From positions 1 through 64,000 of the forward strand of contig NC_089430.1 of the NCBI RefSeq assembly GCF_026210795.1: a stretch of 64,000 nucleotides of DNA, in the 5' to 3' direction. A program made the translations under genes and the position numbers. Source of the stretch: Rhizophagus irregularis (taxonomy: Eukaryota). Under the pieces are notes generated by a model. The model worked only from the letters and a program-made list of their open reading frames with translations. It was not told the DNA's origin and searched no databases. This document shows positions 15,586-54,392 of this stretch, piece by piece; the stretch's first letter is position 1; the number at the start of each line of letters is the position of its first letter.

Positions 15586-16710
15586 ATGCCAAAACAAAAT
15601 AGCAAAGATTTTAAATGGAATGACAGTTATTCTTTGAAACAAATATCTAAATTGCTTTATATAAGCAGAAGAATGATATATAGAATTTTGAATTATTATA
15701 TATTGTGAAAAGATGTTAAGAATCCTATACAGTGACTGAAAGGACACAATAATTCGGATTTGAAAGTTTGTATTTAATTATTAAATATTTCTTATAATTT
15801 TAACACATTGTTAAAGTTTTCTTGTTTTTAAGATTTTGATAGGAATGGTTAAAGAACATCCTAATATGTATTTGGATGAAATGGTTGTTGAAATGGCAAG
15901 AAGAATTGGAAAAGATGTCTCAATTACTACAATATGGTGTTCATGGAATTACACGTAAAAAGGTATACTAATTTTGATTTAAAATCTAATATTAATTTAA
16001 TACTAATAATACTACTGAACTCATTATACAATGACTATTGGGTCACATTTTTGACCTGAACAACTTATCTTTTTGGATGAGAGTGCAAAGGATGAGCGTA
16101 CAACTTGTAGACAATATGGTTACCCTCCACGAAATAAAAGAGCAGTAAAAAAGGTTGTATATATTAGAGGAACACAGTACACTTTACTTTCAGCAATGTC
16201 ATTAGACAATATCATTACATTAGATATTATGCAAGGAAGTTGTAATAAGGAACGATTTTTTAAATTTATTTTGGCTAAAGTGGTAAGTTTAATAAGCTAA
16301 ATAGCTAAATTTTATATTTAAAAATTTGAATTATAAAAAGGAACTAACATACACGCGTTAAACATTTATGTTACGTATATACACATATATAATTCTTACA
16401 ATAGCTTCCAAATATGAATCTATTTCCTCGGATAAACATTGTGTTAGCGATGGATAACGCTCAAATCCATCATAGTGAATTGTTAGTCAATTTTACAGAA
16501 TCTGTTGGATATAAAATTTATTTCTTTCACCGTACTCACCCGATTTAAATCCTATAGAAACTGCATTTCCTTCAATCAAAAATTGGTTAAAAAAAATAAT
16601 AGGAATTATATAGAAAATTGTTTGATCCTTATTTTGCTTTAACAATAGCATGTGCACAAGTTACTCCCGCTAAATCTTATTCATTTTTCGAAAATCATTG
16701 TATCTTTGAT
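15586..16710 (+). pseudogene. Degenerate Tc1/IS630-type DDE transposase
   Basis: HPNMYLDEM helix-turn-helix segment, FLDESAKDERT, LAMDNAQIHH and SPYSPDLNPIETAF motifs, broken by stops, frameshifts and introns. Confidence 0.8.
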
Positions 16711-18867: not shown

Positions 18868-21800
18868 ATGGCTCAAAGTAACAATGAAGGTAAAAGCATA
18901 TAGCATCAAATACAAATTGAAATTATTCTAAAATTTTTCTAAACAAATTTGCAATATAATAAAACTAGTTTCAAGAATTGAGAAAGATAAAGGTAAAATT
19001 ATAAACATGTGATTTAAATTTTTAAACTAATCATTAAAAATTATTTTAATATGTTAGCTCGTAAGTAATAAGATATCTTGTTGGAATGATAATTAAATTA
19101 TATTTTATATAACCAAATAATTTATTTTATTATTAACGTTATTATAGTTAGTAAGTTAATAGTTATTTATTTTTTATTGTATTTTTTACATGACATTTCA
19201 AATAACTAAATTTTTCATTATTATAATTGTTTAATAATCACTTATATTATAGCAAGTAAGTATTTAATTTTATATTAATTTAAAAATATTTGTATAATTC
19301 AAACTAATAATATTATTTATTTAAATAATTAGATTGTAAGTTACTGTGTATATTTTAATTTTTATATATAATATATAATTGATTATAATTACTTTACTAC
19401 AAAATTATTATTAATTAATAATATTACAGGGTGTAAGTTATTTATTTAATTCTATTATATTTATATAATATTTATATGTATAATTTAAACTAACTAAATT
19501 ATTTAAAATTATTTATTTAATAATATAGGGAGTAAGTTATTTATTTAATTCTATTATATTTATATAATATTTACATATAATTTAAACTAACTAAATTCTT
19601 TATTAAAAAATTATTTATTTAATAATATAGTTCGTAAGTTATTTATATTTATATAATATTTACATATAATTTAAATTAACTAAATTCTTTATTTAAAAAA
19701 TTAATTTAATAATATAGGAAGTAAGTTATTTATTTAATTTTACCATATTTATATAATATTTATATATAATTTAAACTAACTAAATTCTTTATTTAAAAAA
19801 TTATTTATTTAATAATATAGTTTGTAAGTTTTTTATTTAATTCTATTATATTTAGTATATAATATTTACATATAATTTAAACTAACTAAATTCTTTATTT
19901 AAAAAATTATTCAAATATTTTAGATGGTAAATTTCTATTATTTATATATATAATATTTACATATAACTTAAACTAATTAATTCTTTATTTAAAAAATTAT
20001 TCAAATATTTTAGAAGGTAAATTTTTATTATATTTATATAATATTTACATATAATTTAACTAAATTTTTTATTTAAAAAATTATTCAAATATTTTAGAAG
20101 GTAAATTTCTATTATATTTATATAATAATATTTACATATAATTGAAATTAACTAAATTTTTTATTTTAAAAAATTATTTATTTAATAATATAGCTTGTAA
20201 GTTATTTATTTAATTTTACCATATTTATATAATATTTATATATAATTTAAACTAACTAAATTCTTTATTTAAAAATTATTTATTTAATAATATAGCTTGT
20301 AAGTTATTATTTAATTTTATTATATTTATAATATTTACATTATAATTTAAATTAATTAAATTCTTTATTTAAAAAATTATTTATTTAATAATATAGTTTG
20401 TAAGTTATTTATTTAATTTTATTATATTTATATAATATTTATATATAATTTAAACTAACTAAATTTTTTTATTTAAAAAATTATTTATTTAATAATATAG
20501 GGAGTATGTTATTTAATTTTATTATATTTATATAATATTTACATATAATTCAAACTAACTAAATTTTTTATTTAAAAAATTATTCAAATATTTTAGAAGG
20601 TAAATTTCTATTATATTTATATAATATTTACTATAATTACAATTAATTAAATTCTTTATTCAAAAAATTATTTAATAATATAGGAAGTAAGTTATTTATT
20701 TAATTTTATTATATTTATATAATATTTACATATAATTCAAACTAACTAAATTTTTTATTTAAAAAACTATTCAAATATTTTAGAAGGTAAATTTCTATTA
20801 TATTTATATAATATTTATATATAATTTAAATTAACTAAATTCTTTACTTAAAAAATTATTCAAATATTTTAGATGGTAAATTTCTATTATATTTATATAA
20901 TATTTATTATATATAATTTTTAAACTAATTAAATTCTTTATTTAAAAAATTATTTATTTAATAATATAGTTTGTAAGTTATTATTTAATTTTTTTTTATA
21001 TTTATATAATATTTATATATAATTTAACTAATAAAATTTTTTTATTTAAAAAATTATTTATTTAATAATATAGTTTGTAAGTTATTTATCTAATTTTTTA
21101 TTATATTTATATTATTTACATATAATTTAAACTAATTAAATTCCTTATTTAAAAAATTATTTATTTAATAATATAGTTTGTAAGTTATTATTTAATTTTA
21201 TTATATTTATATAATATTAATATATAATTCAAACTAACTAAATTTTTTATTTAAAAAATTATTTATTTAATAATATAGGGAGTAATAAATTATTTAATTT
21301 TATTATACTTATTATAATATTTATATATAATTTAAACTAACTAAATTCTTTATTTAAAAAATTATTAAATATTTTAGAAGGTAAATTTTTATTATATTTA
21401 AATAATATTTACATATAATTTAAACTAACTAAATTTTTTATTTTAAAAATTATTTATTTAATAATATAGGAAGTAAGTTATTTATATAATTCTATTATGT
21501 TTATATAATATTTACATATAATTTAAATTAATAATTTTTTATTTAAAAAATTATTTATTTAATAATATAGGAAGTAAGTTATTTATTTAATTTTATTATA
21601 TTTATATAGTAATATTTATATATAATTCAAACTAACTAAATTCTTTATTTAAAAAATTATTTATTTAATAATATAGTTTGTAAGTTATTTATCTAATTCT
21701 ATTATATTTATATAATATTTACATATAATTTAAACTAATTAAATTCTTTATTTAAAAAATTATTCAAATATTTTAGATGGTAAATTTTTATTATATTTAT

Positions 21801-24800
21801 ATAATATTTACATACAATTTAAACTAATTAAAATTCTTTTATTTAACAAATATTTTAGAAGGTAAATTTTTATTATATTTATATAATATTTATATATAAT
21901 TTAAACTAATTAAATTTTTTATTTAAAAAATTATTCAAATATTTTAGATGGTAAATTTATATTATATTTATTATAATATTTCCATATAATTTAAATTAAC
22001 TAAATTCTTTATTTAAAAAATTATTCAAATATTTTAGAAGGTAAATTTATATTATATTTATAATATTTTCATATAATTTAAACTAATTAAATTCTTTATT
22101 TAAAAAATTATTCAAATATTTCAGAAGGTAAATTTCTATTATATTTATATAATATTTATATATAATTTAAACTAATTAAATTTTTTATTTAAAAAATTAT
22201 TCAAATATTTTAGAAGGTAAATTTATATTATATTTATATAATAGTTATATATAATTTAAATTAATTAAATTCTTTATTTAAAAATTATTTATTTAATAAT
22301 ATAGGGAGTAAGTTATTTATTTAATTCTATTATATTTATATAATATTTATATATAATTTAAATTAACTAAATTTTTTATTTAAAAAAATTATTCAAATAT
22401 TTTAGAAGGTAAATTTATATTATATTTATATAATATTATATAATATTTAAATTAACTAAATTCTTTATTTAAAAAATTATTCAAATATTAGATGGTAAAT
22501 TTCTATTGTATTTATATAATATTTTCATATAATTTAAACTAACTAAATTCTTTATTTAAATAATTATTTATTTAATAATATAGCTCGTAAGTTTTTTATT
22601 TAATTCTATTATATTTATATAATATTTATATATAATTTAAACTAATTAAATTCTTTATTTAAAAAATTATTTATTTAATAATATAGAAAGTAAGTTTTAT
22701 TTAATTTTATTATATTTATATAATATTTATATATAATTAATTTAAACTAATTAAATTATTATTTAATAATATAGCTCGTAAGTTTTTTATTTAATTCTAT
22801 TATATTATATAATTTTATATATAATTTAAATTACTAAATTTTTTATTTAAAAAATTATTTATTTAATAATTATAGTTTGTAAGTTATTTATTTAAATTAT
22901 TATATTTATATATAATTTAAATTAACTAAATTTTTTATTTAAAAAATTATTTATTTGATAATATAGGGAGTAAGTTATTTATTTAATTCTATTATATTTA
23001 TATAATATTTTCATATAATTTAAACTAATTAAATTCTTTATTTAAAAAATTATTCAAATATTTTAGATGGTAAATTTCTATTATATTTATATAATATTTA
23101 TATACAGTATAATTTAAACTAATTAAATTCTTTATTAAAAAATTATTTATTTAATAATATAGGAAGTAAGTTATTTATTTAATTTTATAATATTTATATA
23201 TAATTTAAATTAACTAAATTTTTTATTTAAAAAATTATTTATTTAATAACATAGAAAGTAAGTTATTTATTTAATTTTATTATATTTATATAATGTTTAC
23301 ATATAATTTAAACTAATTAAATTCTTTATTAAAATATTTTAGCTTGTAAGTATATATTATATTTTTTTAATTTAATATAATTAATTTATTATAATTATAT
23401 TATACTTACTTATAATCTTTTTAAATTTTATTTTAGTTGGTAAGTTATAAATTATTATATATAATAAAATTTATATAAAAATTAAATATTATTGTATTAA
23501 AATTTTATAATTTTATTTAGAGTAAGTATAATTTATATTATTCAATATTAAATTTTTAATTGTAAATTATATTTTAAATTTAAATATAATTTTATTTTTT
23601 ATATTTAAAGATTTGGTAATAGTGGAAGTAAAATAATGGATCAATTTATTTTTAAAAATAAATTAAAATGGATTTCTTATGATAAATTTGAAAATATTAA
23701 TAAATATTCTGATAAAGAAGGATTTGGTACTATATATAAAGCTAAATATAAAAGGATTAAAGTAATTCTTAAAGATTTTAATCATCTTAATAATTCAGAT
23801 GAATGTTTAAATGAATTTTTAAATGAAGTATGATTAAGTATTTTTTTTTTTATGTTAATTATTATTTATTTATATTAATTTACTAAATATTATTTTTTTT
23901 ATAGTGGAAAATTATTGATTCAAATAAAATTATTAAGATATATGGATTTACAAAAAATCCAGATACTTTGAATTATATATTAATAATGGAATATATAGAT
24001 AAAGGTAATTTAAGAAAATGTTTGACAGAAATAACAAATACTTGGAAACAAAAATTATTTAATTTATATAAAATTATTGATGGTCTTAATGATATTCATA
24101 AAAAAAATCTTATTCATTATAACTTTCATGATGGCAATATTTTATGTAATGAATATAAAGAAAATATATATGGAATTTATATTAGTGATTATTTGGAATT
24201 ACACCAACTTACAAAATTTTTTTTTAAAAAAAATAATATTTATGGTGTTATACCATTTATGGCACCTGAAATTTTAAAAGGTCAACCTTATACTCAAGCT
24301 AGTAATATATATAGTTTTTCTATGATTATGTGGGAATTTACATCTGGAATTCCACCATTTAATGATAAAGCACATAATCTTCAACTTGCTTTAAATATTT
24401 GTAAAGGTGAACGTCCTGAAATTATTAAAAATACTCCACAATGTTATATAAATTTAATGGAAAAATGTTGGAATGAAGATCCATTAAAAAGACCATCTGC
24501 ATCAACAATTTTAAATATTATTAAAAATTGGATTTCTTTTCCTTTAGAAAAGAAAATTGAAGATATTAATGAAGAATTAAGAAGCAATATTATGGAATTT
24601 ATAAATGCATCTAATAATAATTACATTAATCATACTGTAAAATTTCATCCACAAGCATACTATACAAGTCGTTTACTTGATTTTACTAGTATAAATTTAA
24701 ATGAAATTTTATTTCTTAAATTAAAACAAGAGCTTTTTAAATTAGAAAAGATTATTGAAACTAATGATCAAAGTTCTTACCAAATGGAAAAAAATGATTT

Positions 24801-24882
24801 GCAAGCTCAATTAATTCAATTAAAAGCTAATATTCAAGAATCAAAATTTCAGCAAGATCAATTTAAAAATCTATTAATTTAA
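18868..24882 (+). CDS. Tyrosine-kinase-like (TKL) protein kinase or pseudokinase with microexon-encoded N-terminus; predicted 460 aa, 51 introns
   Basis: Exon model: 18868-18889, 18969-18992, 47 three-nt exons (19058-23439), a 1-nt exon at 23521, 23611-23827 and 23905-24882. All introns are GT-AG and the total of 1383 nt is open. Kinase motifs: KWISYDKF, EGFGTIYKA, VILK, IYGFTKNP, IHYNFHDGNIL, YGVIPFMAPE, NIYSFSMIMWE, CWNEDPLKRPS. The kinase domain is secure; the first two exons are less certain. Confidence 0.85.
18993..23610 (+). repeat. AT-rich tandem array of about 85-105-bp units; each unit is one intron plus one 3-nt microexon
   Basis: Each unit contains ...tag/cag NNN gtaagt/gtaaat... 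and most carry a CTAAC/CTAAT/TTAAC branch-point-like motif. The central units (19430-23345) are highly similar to each other, while the outer units are diverged. Confidence 0.92.
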
Positions 24883-25092
24883 TTTCTCAAATTTCTTAAA
24901 TTAATTATAAGTAAATAGAAGAAAAAAAATTTTAGGTTAGAAAGATTGCTAATATTATTTAAATTTTTAGAAAATTTTTATATAAAAAAGGTTCTAAAAA
25001 TACTTTTATTAATAGAGATTTTTGTTATGCATTAGTATTTATATTTAATTTCAAAATTAATATATAAAACAAATAGGCAATTTCTATTTGTA

Positions 25093-25713
25093 CACGGGGT
25101 ATTTGAACTCAGGTCATGTGATTATTGCCATTTTGACTAATAGTATAAACTTCAAAATTAGTAGATAAATGGATTTTTGCCTGCTCTACAAGTTTATCTA
25201 AGGAATCAAAGGTGCTTTTGAATGTCAGTTTTGACTTTACCTATGAATAATTGATTTTGCCGATCGCTCTTAAAAAAATTTAGGAAATGATCAGCAAAGA
25301 CAGTTTTTCATATATTAGTCAAAAACAGCATTCAAAACCCCCTTTAATGCCTTAAGTAAACTTGCAGAGTAGTCAAAAATATATATATTTAAGATTGCTT
25401 GTTTAAATCTCTTCAAAATCCTATGATTAGTTTCGTCAAAATTTTACTATAGATTTATTATAGTTTCGGCAGAGTTTCAGCAGTTTCGGCATTTATAATA
25501 AGTTTCAGCAGTTTTGCCTTTCTCCAAAGTTTTGCCAGTTTTTTAATATAACTTTAATGTAGTTTCAGCAGAATTTCACTTTTCGGCGAAATGCCATCTT
25601 GCCTAAACCCCTAGGTTTCGGCAAGCAACCTTACATATATTGCATAAAAAAAGTAAAATGGTGTGACATTGGTGTCATTATATTTCATATGATCCGTGTT
25701 CAAACACCCTGTG
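25093..25713. mobile_element. Non-autonomous TIR element with TA flanks (Tc1/mariner-like MITE)
   Basis: Left end CACGGGGTATTTGAACTCAGGTCATGTG; right end reverse complement CACAGGGTGTTTGAACACGGATCATATG; TA on both sides. Confidence 0.7.
25390..25633 (-). mobile_element. hAT-type MITE, copy 1, nested in the previous element
   Basis: TIR TAAG(A/G)TTGCTTG...CAAGCAACCTTA; 8-bp flanks TATATATT/CATATATT; inverted homologue of 42230-42473. Confidence 0.85.
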
Positions 25714-28549: not shown

Positions 28550-31500
28550 TTAAAACATAAATGTATTAACAAAATATTCATTTTGTCGTTCGGCACGTTG
28601 AACTACTTGTACCAATTCTATAATTGATTCAATAGGCACAAAGTTATACGTGTTTATAATCTTCAACCAAGGACAATCATATTTGTATAATTGTCTTGAA
28701 TTACAAAAATCGTACCATTGTACAAGGGCAAGATCAAACGACAAATCTTTTTCGATAATTTTAACGTTAATCAACATAAGAACCTAAATATAAAATAAGT
28801 AAGTTATTGCTTGGATTATCATTCGTTAGTAGTTCAATATTAAATAAAATTCTGTACCTTGCCAAAACATGCACCACCTTCGGCTGTATTATAATCTTTA
28901 GACTCTTCCTCGCTCATGCTGATTGACACATCACTAAATGACGGTTCGTTATAATACAAGCTTTTTGCTCTAATGTAATCCCCGCTTGAAGAAATATTAG
29001 CATAACTATACCAACTAATATTAATAGTTTCATTATCGGTTAACCCTTCACATAAATCTAAAAACTCGTTTAACGATTCCAGAAAATATTCTAGAGCCGT
29101 TAGAGCTTCACGGGCCAAGCTATTGTTTGATCGGTAATTATTGAAAAACGCATCAAAATCTTGCAAATTAAATGTGCCTAACAAACTATTCATTAGAGTT
29201 TTTTGTTTGCGTCTATTAACATTTGTACGCTGAAGTAAGTATTTAATTATCCCTTTTCGGTAAACCTATATATAATATAACAATATTAATTTGTGATAAT
29301 GCATTGAATATCGTACTAGCTGTAATACCAACCGATTTAATCATTTGATCTGTTGGGTCACGCTTATTACTAGACCTATAGGGTATTTTTACGGCTTCTT
29401 TATGTAAAAATTCATACGTTTCCATCGTAAACCCGTTGATTGCTCCATATTCTCTAATTGTCTTAATGATATGATAGCACCAATTATGCAGCTTTGGTAA
29501 TCGAAGTTCTGATAGAGAATATTCTTTAAATAGTTTTATAAAGCTCTTTGCCCATTGTTTGATTAGATTCTTTAAACAAAATAAAATATAATCATGTTAA
29601 TTGCAATATTCATAAAAAACTAATCATCATATTATCTCGCTATCATACATCAAAAATCACCAGCTCTGATTCCTTAAAATACTCCCGTCGGCTGTATAAA
29701 TACATCTTATTCCAATAATAATACACGTTAACCAATGCTTCATCAGATCGTTTGGCTCGGGATGTACTTATCGATGATTTGTGGTGGTTTATGACTATTC
29801 CTTCTATGACGAAAACAAATACCTTCATCATATTCCGAAATTCATTGGCAGTAAACCGCTTAATATTTTCCAGGCCATTCTTGAATATCTTAAGGCCAGG
29901 AAATCGTGGGATTTTAGCCAAACGATTATCAAGTTCGTCAACCGCTATTTGACCACACAATTCTTTTAACAACACCCTTGTGTAGGTCACTTGATAATTA
30001 AACAATCCCAAGTCGAGATGATGCATTCGGTCAGGTATTGTTGACAAATAAATATTTAACTGACTATCGTTTATTTTTGAGTAAATATATTAGAAAATAA
30101 TTGGCAAAATAAACACACTTTCTTTAAAAATCACGTGATACGTACGGATAATTCCAAAAGATGTTTTTCATATCGTGTAGAGAATATTGTTGTGCAGAAT
30201 TTTGTTCAACAAGACATCTCATATTTTCTGGTGTTCTTAAGATAATTTGATCGTTTGTTAACTCCACATTGTTCAGCTTCTCACGCTCCACCAAACATTT
30301 ATGACAAGGGTGGTGACAATTAACAGAGTTAAATGTTAAAGTTACCGCAGCATTTTCTGGTAAATCTCCTAACATTACGGAAATAAACGGAAAACACCAC
30401 TTTATACCATTATCTGTTTGAAGATCAAATCCACCATTATAGTCAAGTAACGATCGTGTCAATATATTTAAAGCATATTGATAAAGGACTCGCTTGGCTA
30501 ACCGAAAACTCTTTGACCTCTTTTGTGAAATATCTTTTGCCTTTAGGATCGGCAGATAACCCAAAAGTATTTTGGCATCAGGCCTATTTCTGCGCCAACT
30601 AACTATATTACCAAGTGTCAAATAAATGGGATGTTCGCTGGTCTTTCCTAAGTGATCACGTGTCGTAGCATCCGAATATAAAATTACTGACAATACATTT
30701 GCACCATTAGGAAGTGATTTTTGGACTCTTTCCCACCATTGTCCATTATATTGTTCGTTATATATTCTTTCTCCGTTATGATTTAATAGTGTAAATTTAA
30801 AAGTACAATGGGCAAATATATCCTTATTGCTCAACAATTCCTTTATAACGTCAAAAATCGGACGATAATGAAGATAATACGTTTCTTGTTTATATGTCAT
30901 GATAGGCGCTTTTTTAAAAGAAATATGTGGTACAACAATTTGATCCAACAATTGATGACCTTTTTTTACCGACGTAGGTAAAATTACATTATCGCGGCAA
31001 ATCTTTTTTGAAAATTTAAGTATATCGTTACCACATGCATCAGACAAATTCCATTTAGTAAGCAACTCCATAAAATTTCCAAACTCTTCGCTTGGAAATT
31101 CTGGTATATTTGTTACTCTAATATCAAGAGATTCGAAGGTTAGGATTGGTTCAACGTCAATTAGCGAATATTCGATTTCAATGTCTCTTGATTCGTCAAT
31201 CACTTCCTATATATGGATGTTAATAGACAATAAATACTTGATAAATATGTCGATCGCTTTCTATATATAGACATATATAGACGCACACAAAAGTATAAAT
31301 TATTTTAATTTCATTTAACGTTGATTTCTCACCTCCTCTTTCTCTTCCTCTTCCTCTTCATAGCTCACCTCTTCTAGTTGTTCATCATTATCGCTCCCTT
31401 CCTCTTCTTCTTCCCCTTCGTCTTCCCCTTCCCCTTCGTAGTTCACATCCTCTAGTACTTCATCATTATCTTCCCTTTCTTCTTCGTAGTTCACATCCTC

Positions 31501-36856: not shown

Positions 36857-38959
36857 TATACCACCTCGAAGGTATCATTTGGATTTGAAATCCTGCAACT
36901 TGTGAAGTCATCATTATTCGAAAGTAGTGGCGACATATAATGCCGCAGGATATATTAGACATGCACGAACAAAGGTAAGAAATGGAATCAATTATCACCA
37001 CGAAATATATATGCTTTTTATTTTCAGGTCGCATATCGGTAATCTTCCATACTTCTTGAATGTTTTCTTCACCAACTTCAGCAATTATTGACTTCAACAG
37101 AATTTGCTTAGCATCATATGAATCTTCAACACATCCTTCCATTACACCAGCTTCTGGATCCTATATAGCAATAGTATTAGATTTCGTTAACATTTCAATA
37201 TATAAAAAAGACACTAAATACCTCAACGATATTTGGTTCCACTTGACTTGGTACAAAGTAAAGGCATTGTGCCATTTCCATACGCTCAGCAGACAATATT
37301 TGTGGGGTTAGGTATTCAGTCATTATTTTATCGACTTTAGGAAAAAGGTCTTGACTAACCGTTATAATCCCCACGTAAGTTGATAAAATGCGGTACTCAA
37401 AAAACCGATTCCATTGAGCTTCATGTTCAAACCGTGCATCAAGAGCATCTGCGAGACCGCATAATGTACTGTTTGCTGACAACTCACGCTTGATTATATT
37501 ATTGTGACTTTTGACGCGGAAAGTAGTTTGAATTCCTGCGGTGAAAATTTTTGACGTAAATGCACGAGCTCACGCTTGACGACTAGGATAAAGAGCTCTC
37601 ATCAGGTAATCCTTTATACTAGGATATTTTTCTATAAGCTTAGACCACCTTTCATAAAAAAGTTCTTCATACAAACTGTTACGACATGAAAAAAAGCTCC
37701 GAACGAAACTTTCATATTGATCGCTGAGCTTTGATTTAACATTCTTTGGTAGATTTTCGCTGATATGGAAAATGCAATGAATCGGGTGAGTTGTCTCGTA
37801 TATTTGTGTGATCGCTGCGTTCATGGTGGGATCGGCATCTGTGATGAACACTAAAGGTTCTGTCATTGTTGCTTTTTTTGTGCACTCCAAAATCCATTTA
37901 TAAGATTCTACCGATTTGTCAGATACGAGGGCTTGAGCTACAAGTCGTGATTTAGTATTGTTATTAACGACAAGGAAAAGTGATAATGGCATTTGATAAC
38001 GGTTGGTCTTAGCAGTGTTATCGTTTAAAATAACATCATGATACTCTAACCAAAGAGTAATTTGGGACATAGACATCCAAAAAAGCTGAGTAAGTCTTTT
38101 ATCTTGATCAAACTGAAAATCAATGAACCATCTGGGATCGTTTGACTTATGCTCAATTAGTATTTTTAGTAAGCGAAATGCATCATGGATTACATCTGGC
38201 CTAACCTTATATTTTTGTATTACATTAGAGAGATCACAGTCGAGAATAGATATAGTCAGAAATTTTGCCTTCAACAACTTTTGTTGAGTGGTAATCGGTA
38301 AATTTCTATGTTCGGTGAGAAATTGGACTTCTTTAAGGACATCATCAGGAATGCAACGGTATTTTGATGAATAATTTTCAGTATCAGCAGGAAATAACGC
38401 ATAGTTGTGCAAATTATTGAAAGTGGTAAGAGATACGCCTTGAGAGTTTTGAGGGCAATTGAAATTTGCATTCCATGGACATTGCTGGCATTTTGATTTA
38501 TGATCTTGATGACTATTAATATCAACTTGTTTTTGTGGATGATAATGGCCGCCGAATTCACATCTAAAGCTATGATGTTTAATACTCCCATCTTCACGCT
38601 GACCTAATCGTTTCTTTATAATCGTAAATTCATGTCTTTTGCTATAGGCTTTTATGATTCCGTCCACATCTCCCCACGACCTAAAGGTATCGCCTATGGA
38701 AAGATTTGTTATAGTTAAATATTCAAGGTAACACAGGTCGAACAGGTGTCATTGTCGCAAAATTTGCCTGGAATTTTTCTGGCAAATTGAGAATTATCCC
38801 GGTAAATTGGGGTAAATTGTGTTACAATTTTGGGATAATGGAGGACTTACAATTTGGCAAATTTTGTCAAAATGGCAGAATTCCTACAGAATTCCTAATT
38901 CAAATGTTGAGAAATTTTTCAGATAAATTATCATTAAATTGTGGGAAATTCTAGGCAAA

Positions 38960-46200: not shown

Positions 46201-48279
46201 GTTGAACAGGCATATCTTGATCTGCTAAATAGCAACTTTGCTTTACGTAAAGAGCTGATATTAAAGGAAACAAATAATATTTCCAATAAGGAGAAAATCC
46301 GTAAACTCACAAAGGAGATAGAGGCATGTGAACGATATATCTTCTATCTTGAAAAAAATCTTGTTTCACGTGAGGATGAGATCGATCAGTTAAAGGCAGA
46401 GTGTCAGTCCACTTTAGTTGAACTTGGAAAGTATCGAGATCACTTAGAGTTAAAGGAAGAGGCACTTGTTGCCCAGGATGAACGTATCATTCAGCTTGAA
46501 GACACAGTAGATAAACTCAAAAAACGCATTCAAGAATTATTTTTATGTAAAGAAAAGATAGAAATGGATGAAGATAATGAATTATTCAATCCTATTCTAA
46601 GAATACTAGACCGCCGACGGGCAGTTGCAGATTGTGTGTCTGAAATTCGACTATTTTTTGATCGGAATAGGATTCCAATTCCACAAGACATAGATGATGT
46701 CTTTAATGCTACCACTCAAAGTCTTGATGAAATTATTCGTCAAGCTGCTCTAATGCAAGAAATTGGTGTAGACCAACTAAATCAGATAGAAGGATTGCAG
46801 ACATTACTTGGAGAATCTTTAGATCGTACAAATGCTCTTAATCAAGACTTAATAAGAGTACGTGATGATTTTACATATGAGAGAAATGCTCGTAGACACT
46901 GGGAAACTGTTGCACAACAGAATCAAGCACATATTGCAGGAATACAAATAGCCAATCTAGGTATATGTTTTCTGAATAGACGCAAAGATGCACAACTGGC
47001 AAACCAACAGAATCAGCTGGTAAATCATCAGAATCAGATAGCAAACCAACAGAATCAGATAGCTGAGCATCGAAGGAATGCACACAGGCTGATGTTACGC
47101 TATAATGCTGATACAGAACGTTGGAGAAGAAGGCATGCAGGTTGTATACGTCAGGCACAAAACTGGCAAAGACAATATAGGATTTCACAGACCCAGGTAC
47201 AAGCACAGGCCCAAAATATTTTAAATTTACAACAACAAATATTAGCGTTACAAAACAATCCTCCAAACATGGCTACAATACAAGATGTCATGCATACTAT
47301 ATCACCAGGTCTTGCACAGTTACCATTTTATGATGGACAAGAGCCGCCAGACTCTTATTATCAAAAGCTTAGAGCTGTCAATGAGATGGCTCGTCCACTA
47401 GCTTTTGCTGGTTTTAATGCTGCTATGAGGTGCAATGTCATGAAAAATAAAATGTCTGGTAGATTTATTCCTGTTCCAGTAAATAATCCATATAATGGCA
47501 ATGCTGCTATTAATACAGAACCAGAGTTTCTAAACTGGCTGCAAGGAAAATATAGAGATGTGATGGTTGGAACAAATCAAGGTGCTATAATAGCACTCAT
47601 GAATGAATCATTTTCTCCTATAGATACACCAGATACATATGCAAAAAGAATTCGATCATTAGCACAAGGACAAGTATATGCCGAAATTTTACCTTATCTA
47701 TATAATCATTTGCCTGATGCTTTAGAAATGAGAGTTAGAATTGCTGCTCCTGCTGATCTTGATGCTTTCTTTAATGAGTTGCGTAATAAATGGTATGAAA
47801 GTGGAGGGCGAAAAAATCCAACCACTATAGTAGAACAACCACAGAATAGAACTGCATTAGAAAAGCTTGCAGATATAGCAGTACGTCTTGGCTATACTGG
47901 TGACATAACAAATCCTGTAGCAATACATACTTTCATTGAGAGTGATCTTACCAGAAAGTTAGGTGGATAAACACAACATCTAAGAAAAGATCACTTCGGA
48001 ACTGGTCAGATTAAAAAGGTGACAAAGACAACCAAATCTTCTCCTAAACGTCATTGCTCAAACTGTGGTAGAACAGGTCATTCCAAAAACAAGTGTCCAC
48101 GGAGTAGACGTGCTAAGAAAGTTAACAATACTCACATAGTTGACTATGAAGAATCTGAAAGTGATGAGGAAACTGATGAAGAAACTGAGGAAGAGTTAAC
48201 TGAAGAAGAAGAGGAGGAGGATGAACCTCAGAATTGCTTTAGTGTAAAAAAAAAACTCGTCAACGTGGAGTTTCGGTAA
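46195..48279 (+). CDS. Gag-like protein: long coiled coil, helical domain, CCHC zinc knuckle, acidic tract (one in-frame TAA at 47968)
   Basis: ORFs 46195-47970 and 48019-48279 share a frame. LPFYDGQEPPDSYYQKL resembles the start of retrotransposon Gag capsid regions. CSNCGRTGHSKNKC is CX2CX4HX4C. Confidence 0.7.
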
Positions 48280-49193
48280 AAACCAAAGGGAAAAAATCCC
48301 GTACTTCCAAATCTAAAAGAGAACCTATTCTCAAGAAAACTGATGAAGTCTTTCATGCAGCACTGAAGTCTATAATTGCTTCACTAGCAGCACAATGTCC
48401 TAAAGAAATCCTCCTACAGATTAATGCTTATACCAATCAAGCATATGAGAATCTGAAAGACCCGCTTTTAAACCATTTTGTTAGTGACTATCCAGTTAGT
48501 GAAAGAAAGAAACTCTGGGATGTTCTTTCAGCAAATATGCAAGACATTTTATCTCCTCTAGCTCATGCTGTAAATACAGCAACTCCACTATTACCAACTC
48601 CTCCTGCAGATGTACCATCTGAAGTAGAACAGAAAGAAGACAAAACACTGAACCATGCAATACGTGCCTATCAGCAGAAAAACCTATACTGGCCAAGACC
48701 CTTAGAAATCAACTTTTTCCAGTTAGATGATCCCAATGATGTAGCGACCATTTCCTGTAAAATCAAAAATGTATGCATACCCTATGCTATGATCGATACA
48801 GGGTCTGACTCTTCAGTAATCTCTGAGAATGTAGCTAAGCATCTAGGTCTCAAAATAGATCGAAAGAATATACATGCACTTAATGGTGTAGCTGGATCAA
48901 CCAAAACTCTTGGCACTATCAATGAAATTCCCATAACTATTGGTGAAGGTACAAATACAGTCACTATATCAGACGAATTCTCTGTTATACCTACCGAGAA
49001 GGATCGAAATGGTAAGGACAAATCATTGCTAATACTTGGTATACAGTGGCAGTATCATGCAGGTTGGGAACCTGTAGTAAAGGGTGAGTTCAAAGCAAAT
49101 GTAAATGGACAGGTTGTCTCAATTCCTCTCTCTGTACATAAGGCACAACGTAATGTTTTTGCAGTAGATAGCCAGCCTATAAAAAAAAACTAG
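48245..49193 (+). CDS. Retropepsin-like aspartic protease in the -1 frame relative to Gag
   Basis: AMIDTGSDSSVISENVAKHLGL and LILGIQW. The frame is open from the A10 run at 48246-48255 to TAG 49191-49193. Confidence 0.85.
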
Positions 49194-50320: not shown

Positions 50321-53300
50321 CTAATATTTCTCTGGTAATCTGGTCCCTATAGCTATTTTTTCTGCTGCCTCATGACTTGTGCCACGCTCAAGAAGTTTCT
50401 TATATACTTGAATACGCCAGTGTCCGAATGGTAAGGAGGATATACCATCTGACCAAATCCAGCGTTTTGTATCGATTGGGGATAATGCCTTCTTCTCTGA
50501 CTCGATTAGTGATATTACATGATTTTTTGTACGCATTCCCACATTCTTGGCATAGAAGATATTATTTTCAAACAGACAGTCCCGATATACTTGAGTCATA
50601 GGATCGAAGATTTCATCTTTTTCTACTGTATCATCTAATAAAGTTCCACCTAAAGATGGGAAATATGTGTCCTTAGCCATATCACTCATACCCTTCTTGC
50701 TTACTCCTTTATGTTTGGACTTTGTAGACTTGTCTGCCAAGACATAGTGGTAGGATTTTGCACGGATGTGGTAGGATTCAGTAATTACATTTCCAGGAGT
50801 CTCATCCTTGAAAAGCCCGATAGTCTTGGTATCATTAAGGTCAAAGAGATCTGGACGCTCTGCCATATCCTTGTAAATATCTTCTGTCTCGACATGGTAG
50901 ATAAAGGAGTCAGTATCCATATATCCAAGTCGTACTTTGTTTCCATACTTCTCTTTGACAAAACCATACCAGAAGCGGTACATTAAGAGTTTACTGAGAC
51001 CAAGGACAGATGCACCGATAATGATAGGTTTATTGAGAATAACACTAGCCTTTCCCATATGTGCTCCTACAAGTGTGTTGCCAAGTTGACGAGCATACTT
51101 GAAGGAGGGCTTGCGAACTTTCTTAAGGAATTTCTTCTCATCATTTTCATTGATCATTCTCATAAGCTTGACATCCTGATACTTACGTACATTCTCCATA
51201 GTCTTGCCATAGACTGAGTTATTCATGAGTTTAAAGAAGTCTTTCTCAAATGAATTCTTGGATTGTTGACGTAAATTTGTATTTTTTGCAATATAAGGAG
51301 CTAACCAGTTATCTTGATCAAATGATAGGACTTGTGTAATCTCATCTACAACCATGCCTAACTTAATGTAATACTGGAGCTCTTGGTAATGTATGACATA
51401 ATCTTCATGTTTACCAAGATGTGGAACTAACTTTTCTGTTTCAGGAAATCGCCCTCCATCTAAGTTATCAACAAGTTTGGTTATATATGGGCTTAACCTA
51501 TCCTTTTTTACAGCTATACTATCAACTGCAGGAGGTAAATCTTATAGATAATCATGAGTCCTAAGGGGGTAGTGCGCTTTGATATTTAGGAAGTAACCAC
51601 AGGCAGCATCTGGTTTTGTATTAAGAATTACATTAAGTATCTGCTTCTGCTTATCTGGATTCTGTTTGAAATATTCTGGAGATGCTTCCCATCTGTAATT
51701 ACCAATAGGTAAGTACTGGCTCATAGCCCATCCATACAGATTGTTTGCATCTACATAGGAAATCCAGGTAGTAGGTTTAGAGGGATTAAAAGAGTCACCC
51801 ATCTTAGGGTTATTGGCTTTTAGAAAACGGTGTCCAGCCATAGCTATTCCTCCACGTTTAGCCTTTTCAGTAAAATCATGCATGGTCATGTCAGTGAATA
51901 GCTCTATTTTGACTCCAGTCATCTTAAGCATGCCATCCCATGAAAGTGCTGGTGCAGAGACATAATGACTTGGGTCAAGTCCATAATGATGCATCGCTGT
52001 CTGTTAAAACTTTGTCCAGACATCTGCTAGGAGAAGAACATCAGTCTTAAGGTAAAGGTCATGATACTCGCCCAAGTTCTTGCAGCCAAATTCCTTCCAA
52101 ACTTTTTGTGCATGTTTGTAATTATCCTGAGTGATCTTTCCTCCAAGAGTACTATGAAAGTCATGAATAGATGGGAGTTCTGTCTCCTTGAAACGATCAT
52201 GTGAATCAATATATTTATAAGGATAAACCCCTTTACGTGTGATTAAGTCAATATGTTCAGACGAGAAGTTTTTGAAGTGTCGCTTTGTGAGGGGTTTATC
52301 TGTCCCTAAATTCTTTGCAAGGTTTGCAAGACTGGAGGCCATGAACTGCATGCTATCAATGTACTTGAATTGCCCTACCTTCATGGATTTGTAACGTTCG
52401 AATGTCTCTGCAATAACTTTGATTTGATGTGCTCCAATTGATCGTCCAACAGATTCACAAACTAAATGGGAGTCATAGCCACAGAAGTTATGAAATACTA
52501 CAGGAATTGGAGTCTTCCATGCTTCGATTTGAAGCTTAAGATTGCATGCATTATGAGCAGCTCCACGAAACTTACCTGTGATGTGGCAGTGATCCCAAAC
52601 TTTTTTGTCTTGCACGCCCTGATTGAAATTCCCATTACATATCCAACAACTAACTGCTTCAGTGAATTCCTTTTTAGCTTCCTCTGTTATAATACGTTCT
52701 ACTTTTACTTCTAAAACATCATTAATCCTTCTTAATTCTTTATCAAGTCTGCAGACAAACTCTTCTGTTGCATTTGGTCCTCGGTATAAGAATGGCCCCC
52801 ATGTCTCATCAGTTTCAATCCAGTGGACCATATAGCAGAAGCTATTAGCCTTTTGCTCCATAATCTTATGCATATTTCCACCATAGTTTTCATTACACTT
52901 TCTGTTATCAGCCTCAAAGTCTGCAATAATTACACATGGAGCATACATTGTTCGGTTAAAATTCTTAAACTCCTCAAAATCATTCTTACCTTTAACTGGT
53001 AACTCAACTCTTTGTGGTGACTCACCTAATCCAAAACACCATTCCTGATGATTAGTTAGAGATTTAGACGATGGAAAGCTTTGGAAGCACCGATTGCAAA
53101 GATGCTTCTTTCCCTTGTGGGATGTATCTTTGTATATTAAAGCATCAGGATTCTTAATCCAAAGGAAGTGATTCTTCTGACCATACTTTCCTTCATCTGA
53201 TTTTGTAATATCTGTAAGGGCCATGAGGTGAATGATATGTTGACGGTTGTAATTCTTACTTGCAATAACAGGTTTTGGAATACCAGTTTTCTCCTCCCAT

Positions 53301-54392
53301 TCCCATACATTAATGGAGATCTCAGGATTGAGGTCCTCAATCTTGCTAAATATGCGTGGACAAACAGGAGTGGGCATGGGAATTGCATTGAGATTGACTT
53401 GTTCCAAGTATGGCTTAAATTTTTCTGCCCGAAAGATTCGCTCAAGTTTTTGTGTATGTCCATCTTTATATGCAAAGTAAGCACCTAAAGCCCCTTGCAA
53501 ACATTTTTCAGAGAGCAAGCCTGTGTCCGGATCTATGAGATCTTTGTTATCCGGATTGATAGTGCACTCACTTCTTATTTGCAAGTGCCTTAGGTGTAAG
53601 TATGTATGAGCCTCCTTCTGCTCGGCGGTAAGTATACGTCTCAATAGTTAATATATCTATACTAACAATTTTCCAACCAGACCCTCCTTTCATAAATTTG
53701 ACAATTTTATCTGTGATATCTACTGCTGATTTCGTTAAATGATCATCTATATCATTCTTTAAAAGAAGTACACGCATGACTCCTCTATGATAAACTTGCT
53801 TATATGTTCCACTATTATCTGTATATGTAGCCAATATAGTGATAGCTGATTTGATTTGCCCCTTTTCTTCAAGTTCACTCTCAAGAATTTCTGTTATTTT
53901 CTGACGGGTATCAGCTATTACACTTGGAAAATATGGTATATCTCTAACATTTGGTTTAAGATCAGCTTGCCATACTGTCTTATGTTTTAGAGATTTATGT
54001 GAACGTGCAGGATCATGAACTCTTTTTACAAATTGAATATCACACCATCTTCCTCTATAATCTCCTTGCATATAAGCAAACCATTCATTATCTGTTTGGG
54101 GAGCTCTTCTTTTTCGTGGAGTATATTGATTGTAATCACCAGGTCCTGCTAACCATTTTGCTAGTTCATCAATTGATAAATTAGGAGTTTTCTCTGCAGG
54201 AGCTGGGATAACTTCAGGTATGAGTTCCTGGAGTTGCTCCGGTTGTGGTTGCAATTGTACAATCTCAGGTGTGGGATCCTGAGGGTTAGCTGTAGGCTTG
54301 CATAGAAACTTTCTATTTTGATGCCCACGAAGCTTTTGTGGAGTTGCAAAAGTCTTTCCACATCTATCACAAGTTCGATTACTTGTTGCCAT
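50321..54392 (-). pseudogene. Protein-primed family B DNA polymerase (pPolB) with N-terminal zinc finger and endonuclease VII-like insert, disrupted
   Basis: Exonuclease motifs ADFE, FHNFCGYDSHL and YLKTDV. EndoVII-like CWIC...DHCHITGKFRGAAHNACNL. Polymerase motifs YVDANNLYGWAM, KLMNNSVYGKTM and YMDTDS. Frameshift near 53570; in-frame stops at 52004 and 51542. Confidence 0.95.

Follow-up and report, generated by a model that had tools for sequence, protein, structure and literature searches.

The locus described here raises the question whether a single nucleotide can serve as an exon of its own. The window, i.e. the whole 64,000-nucleotide stretch of Rhizophagus irregularis DNA that was analysed, opens with telomeric TAACCC repeats and is AT-rich. 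About 19 kb from the repeats, on the forward strand, it contains a predicted gene for a kinase-like protein, in which an A at position 23521 stands between ttttatttag (23511-23520) and gtaagt (23522-23527). A sequence-only reading had proposed that this A is a one-nucleotide exon linking a phase-1 chain of microexons to a phase-2 kinase exon, and that its skipping could work as an on/off switch. The ag-A-gtaagt at 23519-23527 was found exactly as first described, with the coordinates and phases given. In our analysis the A is probably (about 0.8) a real, always-included one-base exon, which joins a 47-exon phase-1 chain to the phase-2 start of the kinase-like part. This assignment draws on the splice motifs, the intron sizes, the phases, a frame that stays open only if the A is included, and homologous loci arranged in the same way.

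The predicted gene and its probable one-base exon

The gene model opens with exons of 22 and 24 nt. Then come 47 exons of three bases each, the A on its own and finally two exons for the kinase, and 51 introns of 65-103 nt separate the exons of the model. The predicted exon 1 (18868..18889) starts with ATG and fixes phase 1. The predicted exon 2 (18969..18992) leads from phase 1 to phase 1, has AG/GT ends and is flanked by introns of 79 and 65 nt. The three-base exons (19058..23439), the middle of which forms a tandem array, have introns of 77-103 nt and are each in phase 1, thus the phase set by exon 1 is preserved up to the last of them. A short motif resembling exon 1, followed by eight-residue repeats, opens the annotated paralogues P0041, P0075, P0079 and P0239.

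Phase 2 is required by the first kinase exon (23611..23827, 217 nt, acceptor AG at 23609-23610), and also by the next two AGs, which would start the exon at 23623 or 23629. The predicted one-base exon supplies the difference. It is preceded by an 81-nt phase-1 intron (23440..23520) and followed by an 89-nt phase-2 intron (23522..23610) with the donor GTAAGT, both within the gene's own range of intron lengths, and would convert phase 1 to phase 2 as the centre base of a codon to which three exons contribute. When the A is included, the joined model has 460 open codons, and the three-exon codon is GAA, the Glu codon (G-A-A) that had been predicted. Without it the frame is closed after 8 codons by a TAA (23634-23636) that precedes the last intron; the expectation that skipping the A would frameshift the kinase was therefore borne out.

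It must be noted that the one-base motif by itself is weak against chance, since TTAGNGTAAGT occurs once in the window, with 0.19 occurrences expected, and 15 of 100 shuffled sequences contain one; the case rests on the position of the motif and on its conservation. The donor at 23522 scores 12.3 bits, which is the top class in the gene, the rival donors having 0.7 and -5.5 bits. Three other readings of the site were considered and rejected. An assembly error is unlikely, because the context around the A is identical letter for letter in L001, one of the homologous loci described below. In a stwintron the base between the two introns belongs to the splice site of the outer intron, and the frame is kept. 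Here the AG at 23521-23522 would rebuild a donor but give phase 0, which is out of frame (worked out by hand), and it is absent from L004 and L005, two loci with T in place of the A. A five-nucleotide exon would create a stop in phase 1.

Several features elsewhere in the window were recorded in passing. Two ORFs at 50324-53647 (minus strand) match DNA polymerase B type 2, one of them also endonuclease VII, and may be part of what we take to be a Polinton-like element. Transposon remnants with DDE_3, Plavaka, MULE and retro-type aspartyl protease matches lie at 16055-16297 (plus), 30127-31206 (minus), 37573-38748 (minus) and 48243-49190 (plus), and four adjacent ORFs of 139-282 amino acids without a Pfam match share the plus strand at 6045-9112.

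Homologous loci and the phase of the acceptor

One scan of soil metagenome contigs yielded 80 homologous loci (L001-L080), which, judged from AT content and kinase likeness, probably come from related fungi. In a loose first pass, which scored 36 loci, the expected pattern was seen except in L001, L010 and L044; the nearest candidate exon had 2 nt in L001 and 3 nt in L010. A strict rule, set after this pass, called for a GTAAG donor 60-125 nt before an open acceptor, and scored 33 of the 80 loci. Under this rule the last exon before the kinase has 1 nt (seven loci, the base being A or T) or 4 nt (four loci) in all 11 loci whose acceptor is in phase 2, and 3 nt in all 21 whose acceptor is in phase 1. 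The remaining locus, L044, fits neither class; it looks broken, and an open acceptor is missing from the usual position.

Among the 47 unscored loci, 24 have no intron-like acceptor near the motif, 4 lack the motif, and in 13 phase-1 and 6 phase-2 loci the strict exon is absent from the range. The six phase-2 loci comprise L003 with a degenerate donor, L011 with unrelated upstream DNA, L013 and L015 on short contigs, and L073 and L075 with false acceptors inside a long exon. In many of the 24 loci without such an acceptor the same exon has a Cys-rich stretch in its place. In L018 and L026 a Cys-rich stretch was seen where relatives with the second class of kinase carry the chain. This second class, found among L016-L080 (e.g. 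L025:90-1631, L032:13-2182 and L071:177-1880), has long three-base chains and a phase-1 acceptor. Chains of at least two three-base exons occur in 33 of the 80 loci.

In an alignment of 13 sequences no base varies in the TTAG on the 5' side and the TAAG on the 3' side of the tiny exon, and 12 of the 13 have the donor G; the mean column identity is 55%, and the introns are 64-84% identical to those of the window. The conservation of ag-A-gtaagt, which had been suggested as a check, thus holds in the form of a site kept with 1 nt in seven loci and with 4 nt in four. The window gene and five of the seven one-base loci combine a 1-nt exon with an acceptor offset of 10, L008, L010 and L012 combine 4 nt with an offset of 7, and therefore both types have equal coding length.

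A tree of 49 short protein rows and 92 columns, which leaves many forks open, groups the phase-2 loci as a single clade (100/97); within it the one-base loci form a clade of their own (97/93), to which the 4-nt loci do not belong. The split of 11 against 21 loci therefore amounts to about two evolutionary events, not 32, and a Fisher P of 8e-9 overstates the case. If the phase-1 genes are the outgroup, the likely order on this tree is from 4 nt to 1 nt. A history compatible with these data would begin with an older class of genes, in which the acceptor joining the chain to the kinase was in phase 1 and lay 38 nt ahead of the conserved Ser. In one clade the acceptor would have shifted to phase 2, with a 4-nt exon bridging the gap, and in a nested clade this exon would have been reduced to a single nucleotide. 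The chains themselves may have grown by duplication of intron-exon units.

Some loci have features that, from the sequence, look like signs of decay. In L003 (300-320) the donor at the one-base site is degenerate, yet the kinase frame is open for 205 codons to the end of the contig; in L001, the closest relative (1-525), the site is kept and there is no chain in the 525 nt upstream; and in L009 (110-245) the acceptor of the last three-base exon is damaged.

The predicted chain of three-base exons and the kinase-like domain

The earlier reading regarded the one-nucleotide exon as the rarity of the locus. The larger find, as predicted from these genes, is an unannotated and family-wide chain of codon-sized exons placed in front of the kinases. 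In the window all 47 three-base units have intact AG/GT ends. Between 19554 and 23292 the intron-exon units form a tandem array with a period of about 89, 40 copies and 70% matches, and TAGNNNGTAAGT is present 28 times, always on the plus strand and in this gene, compared with 0.55 expected occurrences and none in 100 shuffles. Two unit types alternate at 19924-23069: AAG and ATG exons have a GTAAAT donor and an acceptor context in common, the remaining units have a different acceptor context and mostly a GTAAGT donor. The AAG units can also be read as AG followed directly by GT, a possible zero-length splice point.

Whether the chain is translated can be judged from the codons formed across neighbouring exons. 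In phase 1 none of the 46 junctions of the window chain creates a stop, compared with 4.3 expected on shuffling (P=0.0015), and none of 143 junctions in the homologous loci does so (6.8 expected, P=0.00015). In phase 2 there are 3 stops in the window chain and 29 in the loci. Phase 0 is likewise free of stops, none of the exons being a stop codon; however, it is unfit as the frame of the chain, because it leaves the avoidance in phase 1 unexplained and does not match the 22-nt exon 1. Trp codons at the junctions number 5 in the window against 1.6 in shuffles, and 14 against 6.8 in the loci. The avoidance of phase-1 stops between neighbours makes in-order translation of the chain likely, although block duplication in the array of about 40 units means that the junctions are not independent, which weakens these statistics. 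Skipping a single exon leaves the frame open in 41 of 45 cases and creates a stop in 4, a jump from a chain exon straight to the A would create one in 12 of 47 cases, and 12% of the ordered exon pairs would do so. Selection seems to act on the in-order product, as the stops from 4 of the 45 skips and 12 of the 47 jumps indicate; most skips are nonetheless tolerated by the frame. On these data the chain likely encodes a variable, Trp-rich head of about 48 residues, which would most likely be a binding surface.

The main kinase exon (23905..24882, plus strand) runs to the stop codon and encodes a kinase fold in which the catalytic Asp is replaced by Asn. It is 100% identical to P0001, a 389-residue R. 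irregularis protein with a kinase-like domain, and the kinase exons are 54-83% identical to most paralogues among the matches listed. P0001 matches PF07714 (E=4.6e-33, 115 bits, cut-off 23) and also PF00069; its Pfam search returned kinase families only, and no NACHT or ankyrin domains. Compared with the translations of L002-L015, the catalytic loop reads HYN instead of HxD and the DFG-like motif DYL instead of DLG. The catalytic Asp of the HRD loop and the DFG motif both have roles in kinase activity. Among 271 proteins examined, the catalytic Asp is kept in 172 of the 183 relatives that could be scored, and the Asn at this position sets the window copy apart from the Rhizophagus PF07714/PF00069 kinase-like family. 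The window copy is thus predicted to be a catalytically dead pseudokinase, and most other members of the family look intact in their sequences.

P0001 starts at Met 23636, inside the first kinase exon, so the public model is without the upstream exons. Of the inspected paralogue models some begin at an internal Met, some are incomplete, and some seem to have been read through the repeat, and among the annotated N-termini that we inspected, including 25 of the 63 matches of one search, there was none that corresponded to the spliced chain. The 80 loci contain no cDNA-like copy of a chain gene. Gene predictors appear to use shifted donors in these genes. The Phe-Gly motif was present in 89 of 213 annotated proteins, and in 28 of the 29 that have a Lys directly before the conserved Phe-Gly this Lys is preceded by Ser, Gly, Cys or Arg, residues encoded by NGT codons. 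A Ser-Lys before Phe-Gly would fit ag-A-gtaa, but any shifted donor would suffice, hence the pattern is a sign only that the phase problem is family-wide.

In three poly(A) sets with the same species label (from two samples, with roughly one quarter of every run read) the first kinase exon had a depth of about 0-1, and no junction was listed for it. The X21-X23 reads and X1 contigs that fell on 23300-25100 were mostly partial matches of paralogues, with no junction at 23611; the X1 contigs continue through introns and are thus DNA or unspliced sequence.

Alternative explanations, known systems and significance

According to the on/off proposal, skipping of the one-base exon would be regulated, and the message, with its stop 8 codons on, would be degraded. 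This proposal draws on the position of the TAA at 23634-23636 before the last intron. This stop also overlaps the in-frame ATG at which the public model begins (TAATG, 23634-23638), and a restart at the annotated Met 23636 is therefore conceivable. The overlap is probably due to chance, because this Met is missing in L001, L004, L007 and L008. No skipped isoform was seen in the three read sets, at the depth of about 0-1 mentioned above; the donor at 23522 is of the strongest type in the gene; and the presence of a 1- or 4-nt exon at this place in every scorable phase-2 locus is what a structural need predicts. The one-base exon of Arabidopsis is constitutive (PMC4674806). We consider regulated skipping improbable: the top-class donor and the exon kept in relatives fit a fixed frame adaptor, and the A at 23521 is, from its sequence context, most likely such an adaptor rather than a switch.

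When all GT-AG paths from the last three-base exon to the kinase frame were enumerated, some paths without the A were open on paper. The last three-base exon could use a GT four bases downstream and become a 7-nt exon, or splice to the phase-1 acceptors 23718 or 23721, and the apparent use of shifted donors by predictors (the 28 of 29 proteins above) points in the same direction. However, the shifted donor has -5.5 bits, unlike any of the gene's 50 other donors, its intron would have at least 167 nt compared with 65-103 nt elsewhere in the gene, the far acceptors would delete about 35 conserved residues, and neither path explains the conserved ag-N-gtaag site. Splicing around the A is thus very unlikely. 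If, on the other hand, the chain were a dead relic or a repeat without coding function, and translation of the kinase began at Met 23636, the A would need no explanation. P0001 and many paralogue models begin at or just before this Met, the gene is barely covered in the three RNA read sets, it lies near the telomere amid transposon remnants, and its catalytic Asp is absent. Set against this, the avoidance of stops in phase 1 only and the Trp enrichment point to selection on a translated chain, the AG/GT ends are intact in all 47 units, the length of the last exon follows the phase of the acceptor, and Met 23636 is not conserved. A relic chain has, in our judgement, little probability; the window copy alone could be a recent pseudogene.

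In the most likely mechanism each of the 80-90 nt introns would be spliced out singly. Short fungal introns are usually removed one at a time, and with such removal the size of an exon is no barrier. The A would then always be included, and its role would be limited to frame matching.

It is of interest to compare the predicted gene with known systems. One-base exons are described in Arabidopsis APC11, where the exon is constitutive (PMC4674806), and in Fusarium CYP621A, where a read-supported exon leads from phase 1 to phase 2; the Fusarium paper (2026) describes, by its own account, the second exon of one base to be reported and the first from a fungus (PMC12940212). As in these genes, one base required for the frame lies between two GT-AG introns, and the bridge from phase 1 to 2, the middle codon position and the oversight by gene models are shared with CYP621A. 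In APC11 and CYP621A the one-base exon stands alone in a conserved motif, whereas here it comes last, after dozens of three-base exons, and the gene family is a large one. The CYP621A base is always G, in contrast with A or T here, where sister genes have a 4-nt counterpart. The exons of APC11 and CYP621A are supported by transcripts, the window exon is predicted from DNA.

Many 3-bp exons, with alternative splicing, are reported for Tuber nank (PMC4986451, PMC10197012; Iotti et al. 2012 as cited), likewise an expanded fungal signalling family. Its members have NACHT and ankyrin domains, compared with a kinase-like PF07714 domain here, and belong to another fungal lineage; the citing passages do not mention a one-base exon. 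The 47 three-base exons of the translated chain that we predict from genomic DNA are of the Tuber nank kind. The Schistosoma MEGs (bioRxiv 10.1101/2023.06.21.545858) have runs of short exons, down to 3 bp, but their introns are 0.2-5 kb long and they encode secreted proteins, whereas the introns of the window gene measure 65-103 nt, and its chain is followed by a kinase-like domain. In the titles and abstract openings of the top-listed papers, we found no prior report of this layout in Rhizophagus or arbuscular mycorrhizal fungi. What appears to be new is a variant that would unite two known kinds, one-base exons and chains of codon-sized exons.

One-base exons would here occur across a whole branch of a gene family, together with a natural control (1 or 4 nt versus 3 nt), so that the splicing and the origin of small exons could be tested directly. 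The results suggest that the annotated N-termini are wrong in the expanded kinase family of arbuscular mycorrhizal fungi, and the hidden variable domain may explain what these many kinases sense. We put forward tentatively, as a possibility that falls short of an even chance, that mycorrhizal fungi have a large family of receptors, kinases as well as pseudokinases, which annotation has missed, with Trp-rich heads encoded one codon per exon and varied by unit duplication and exon skipping, one branch of which would depend on one-base exons, and that this family is a candidate for telling self, host and microbes apart. If this were true, it could be the largest known set of one-base exons.
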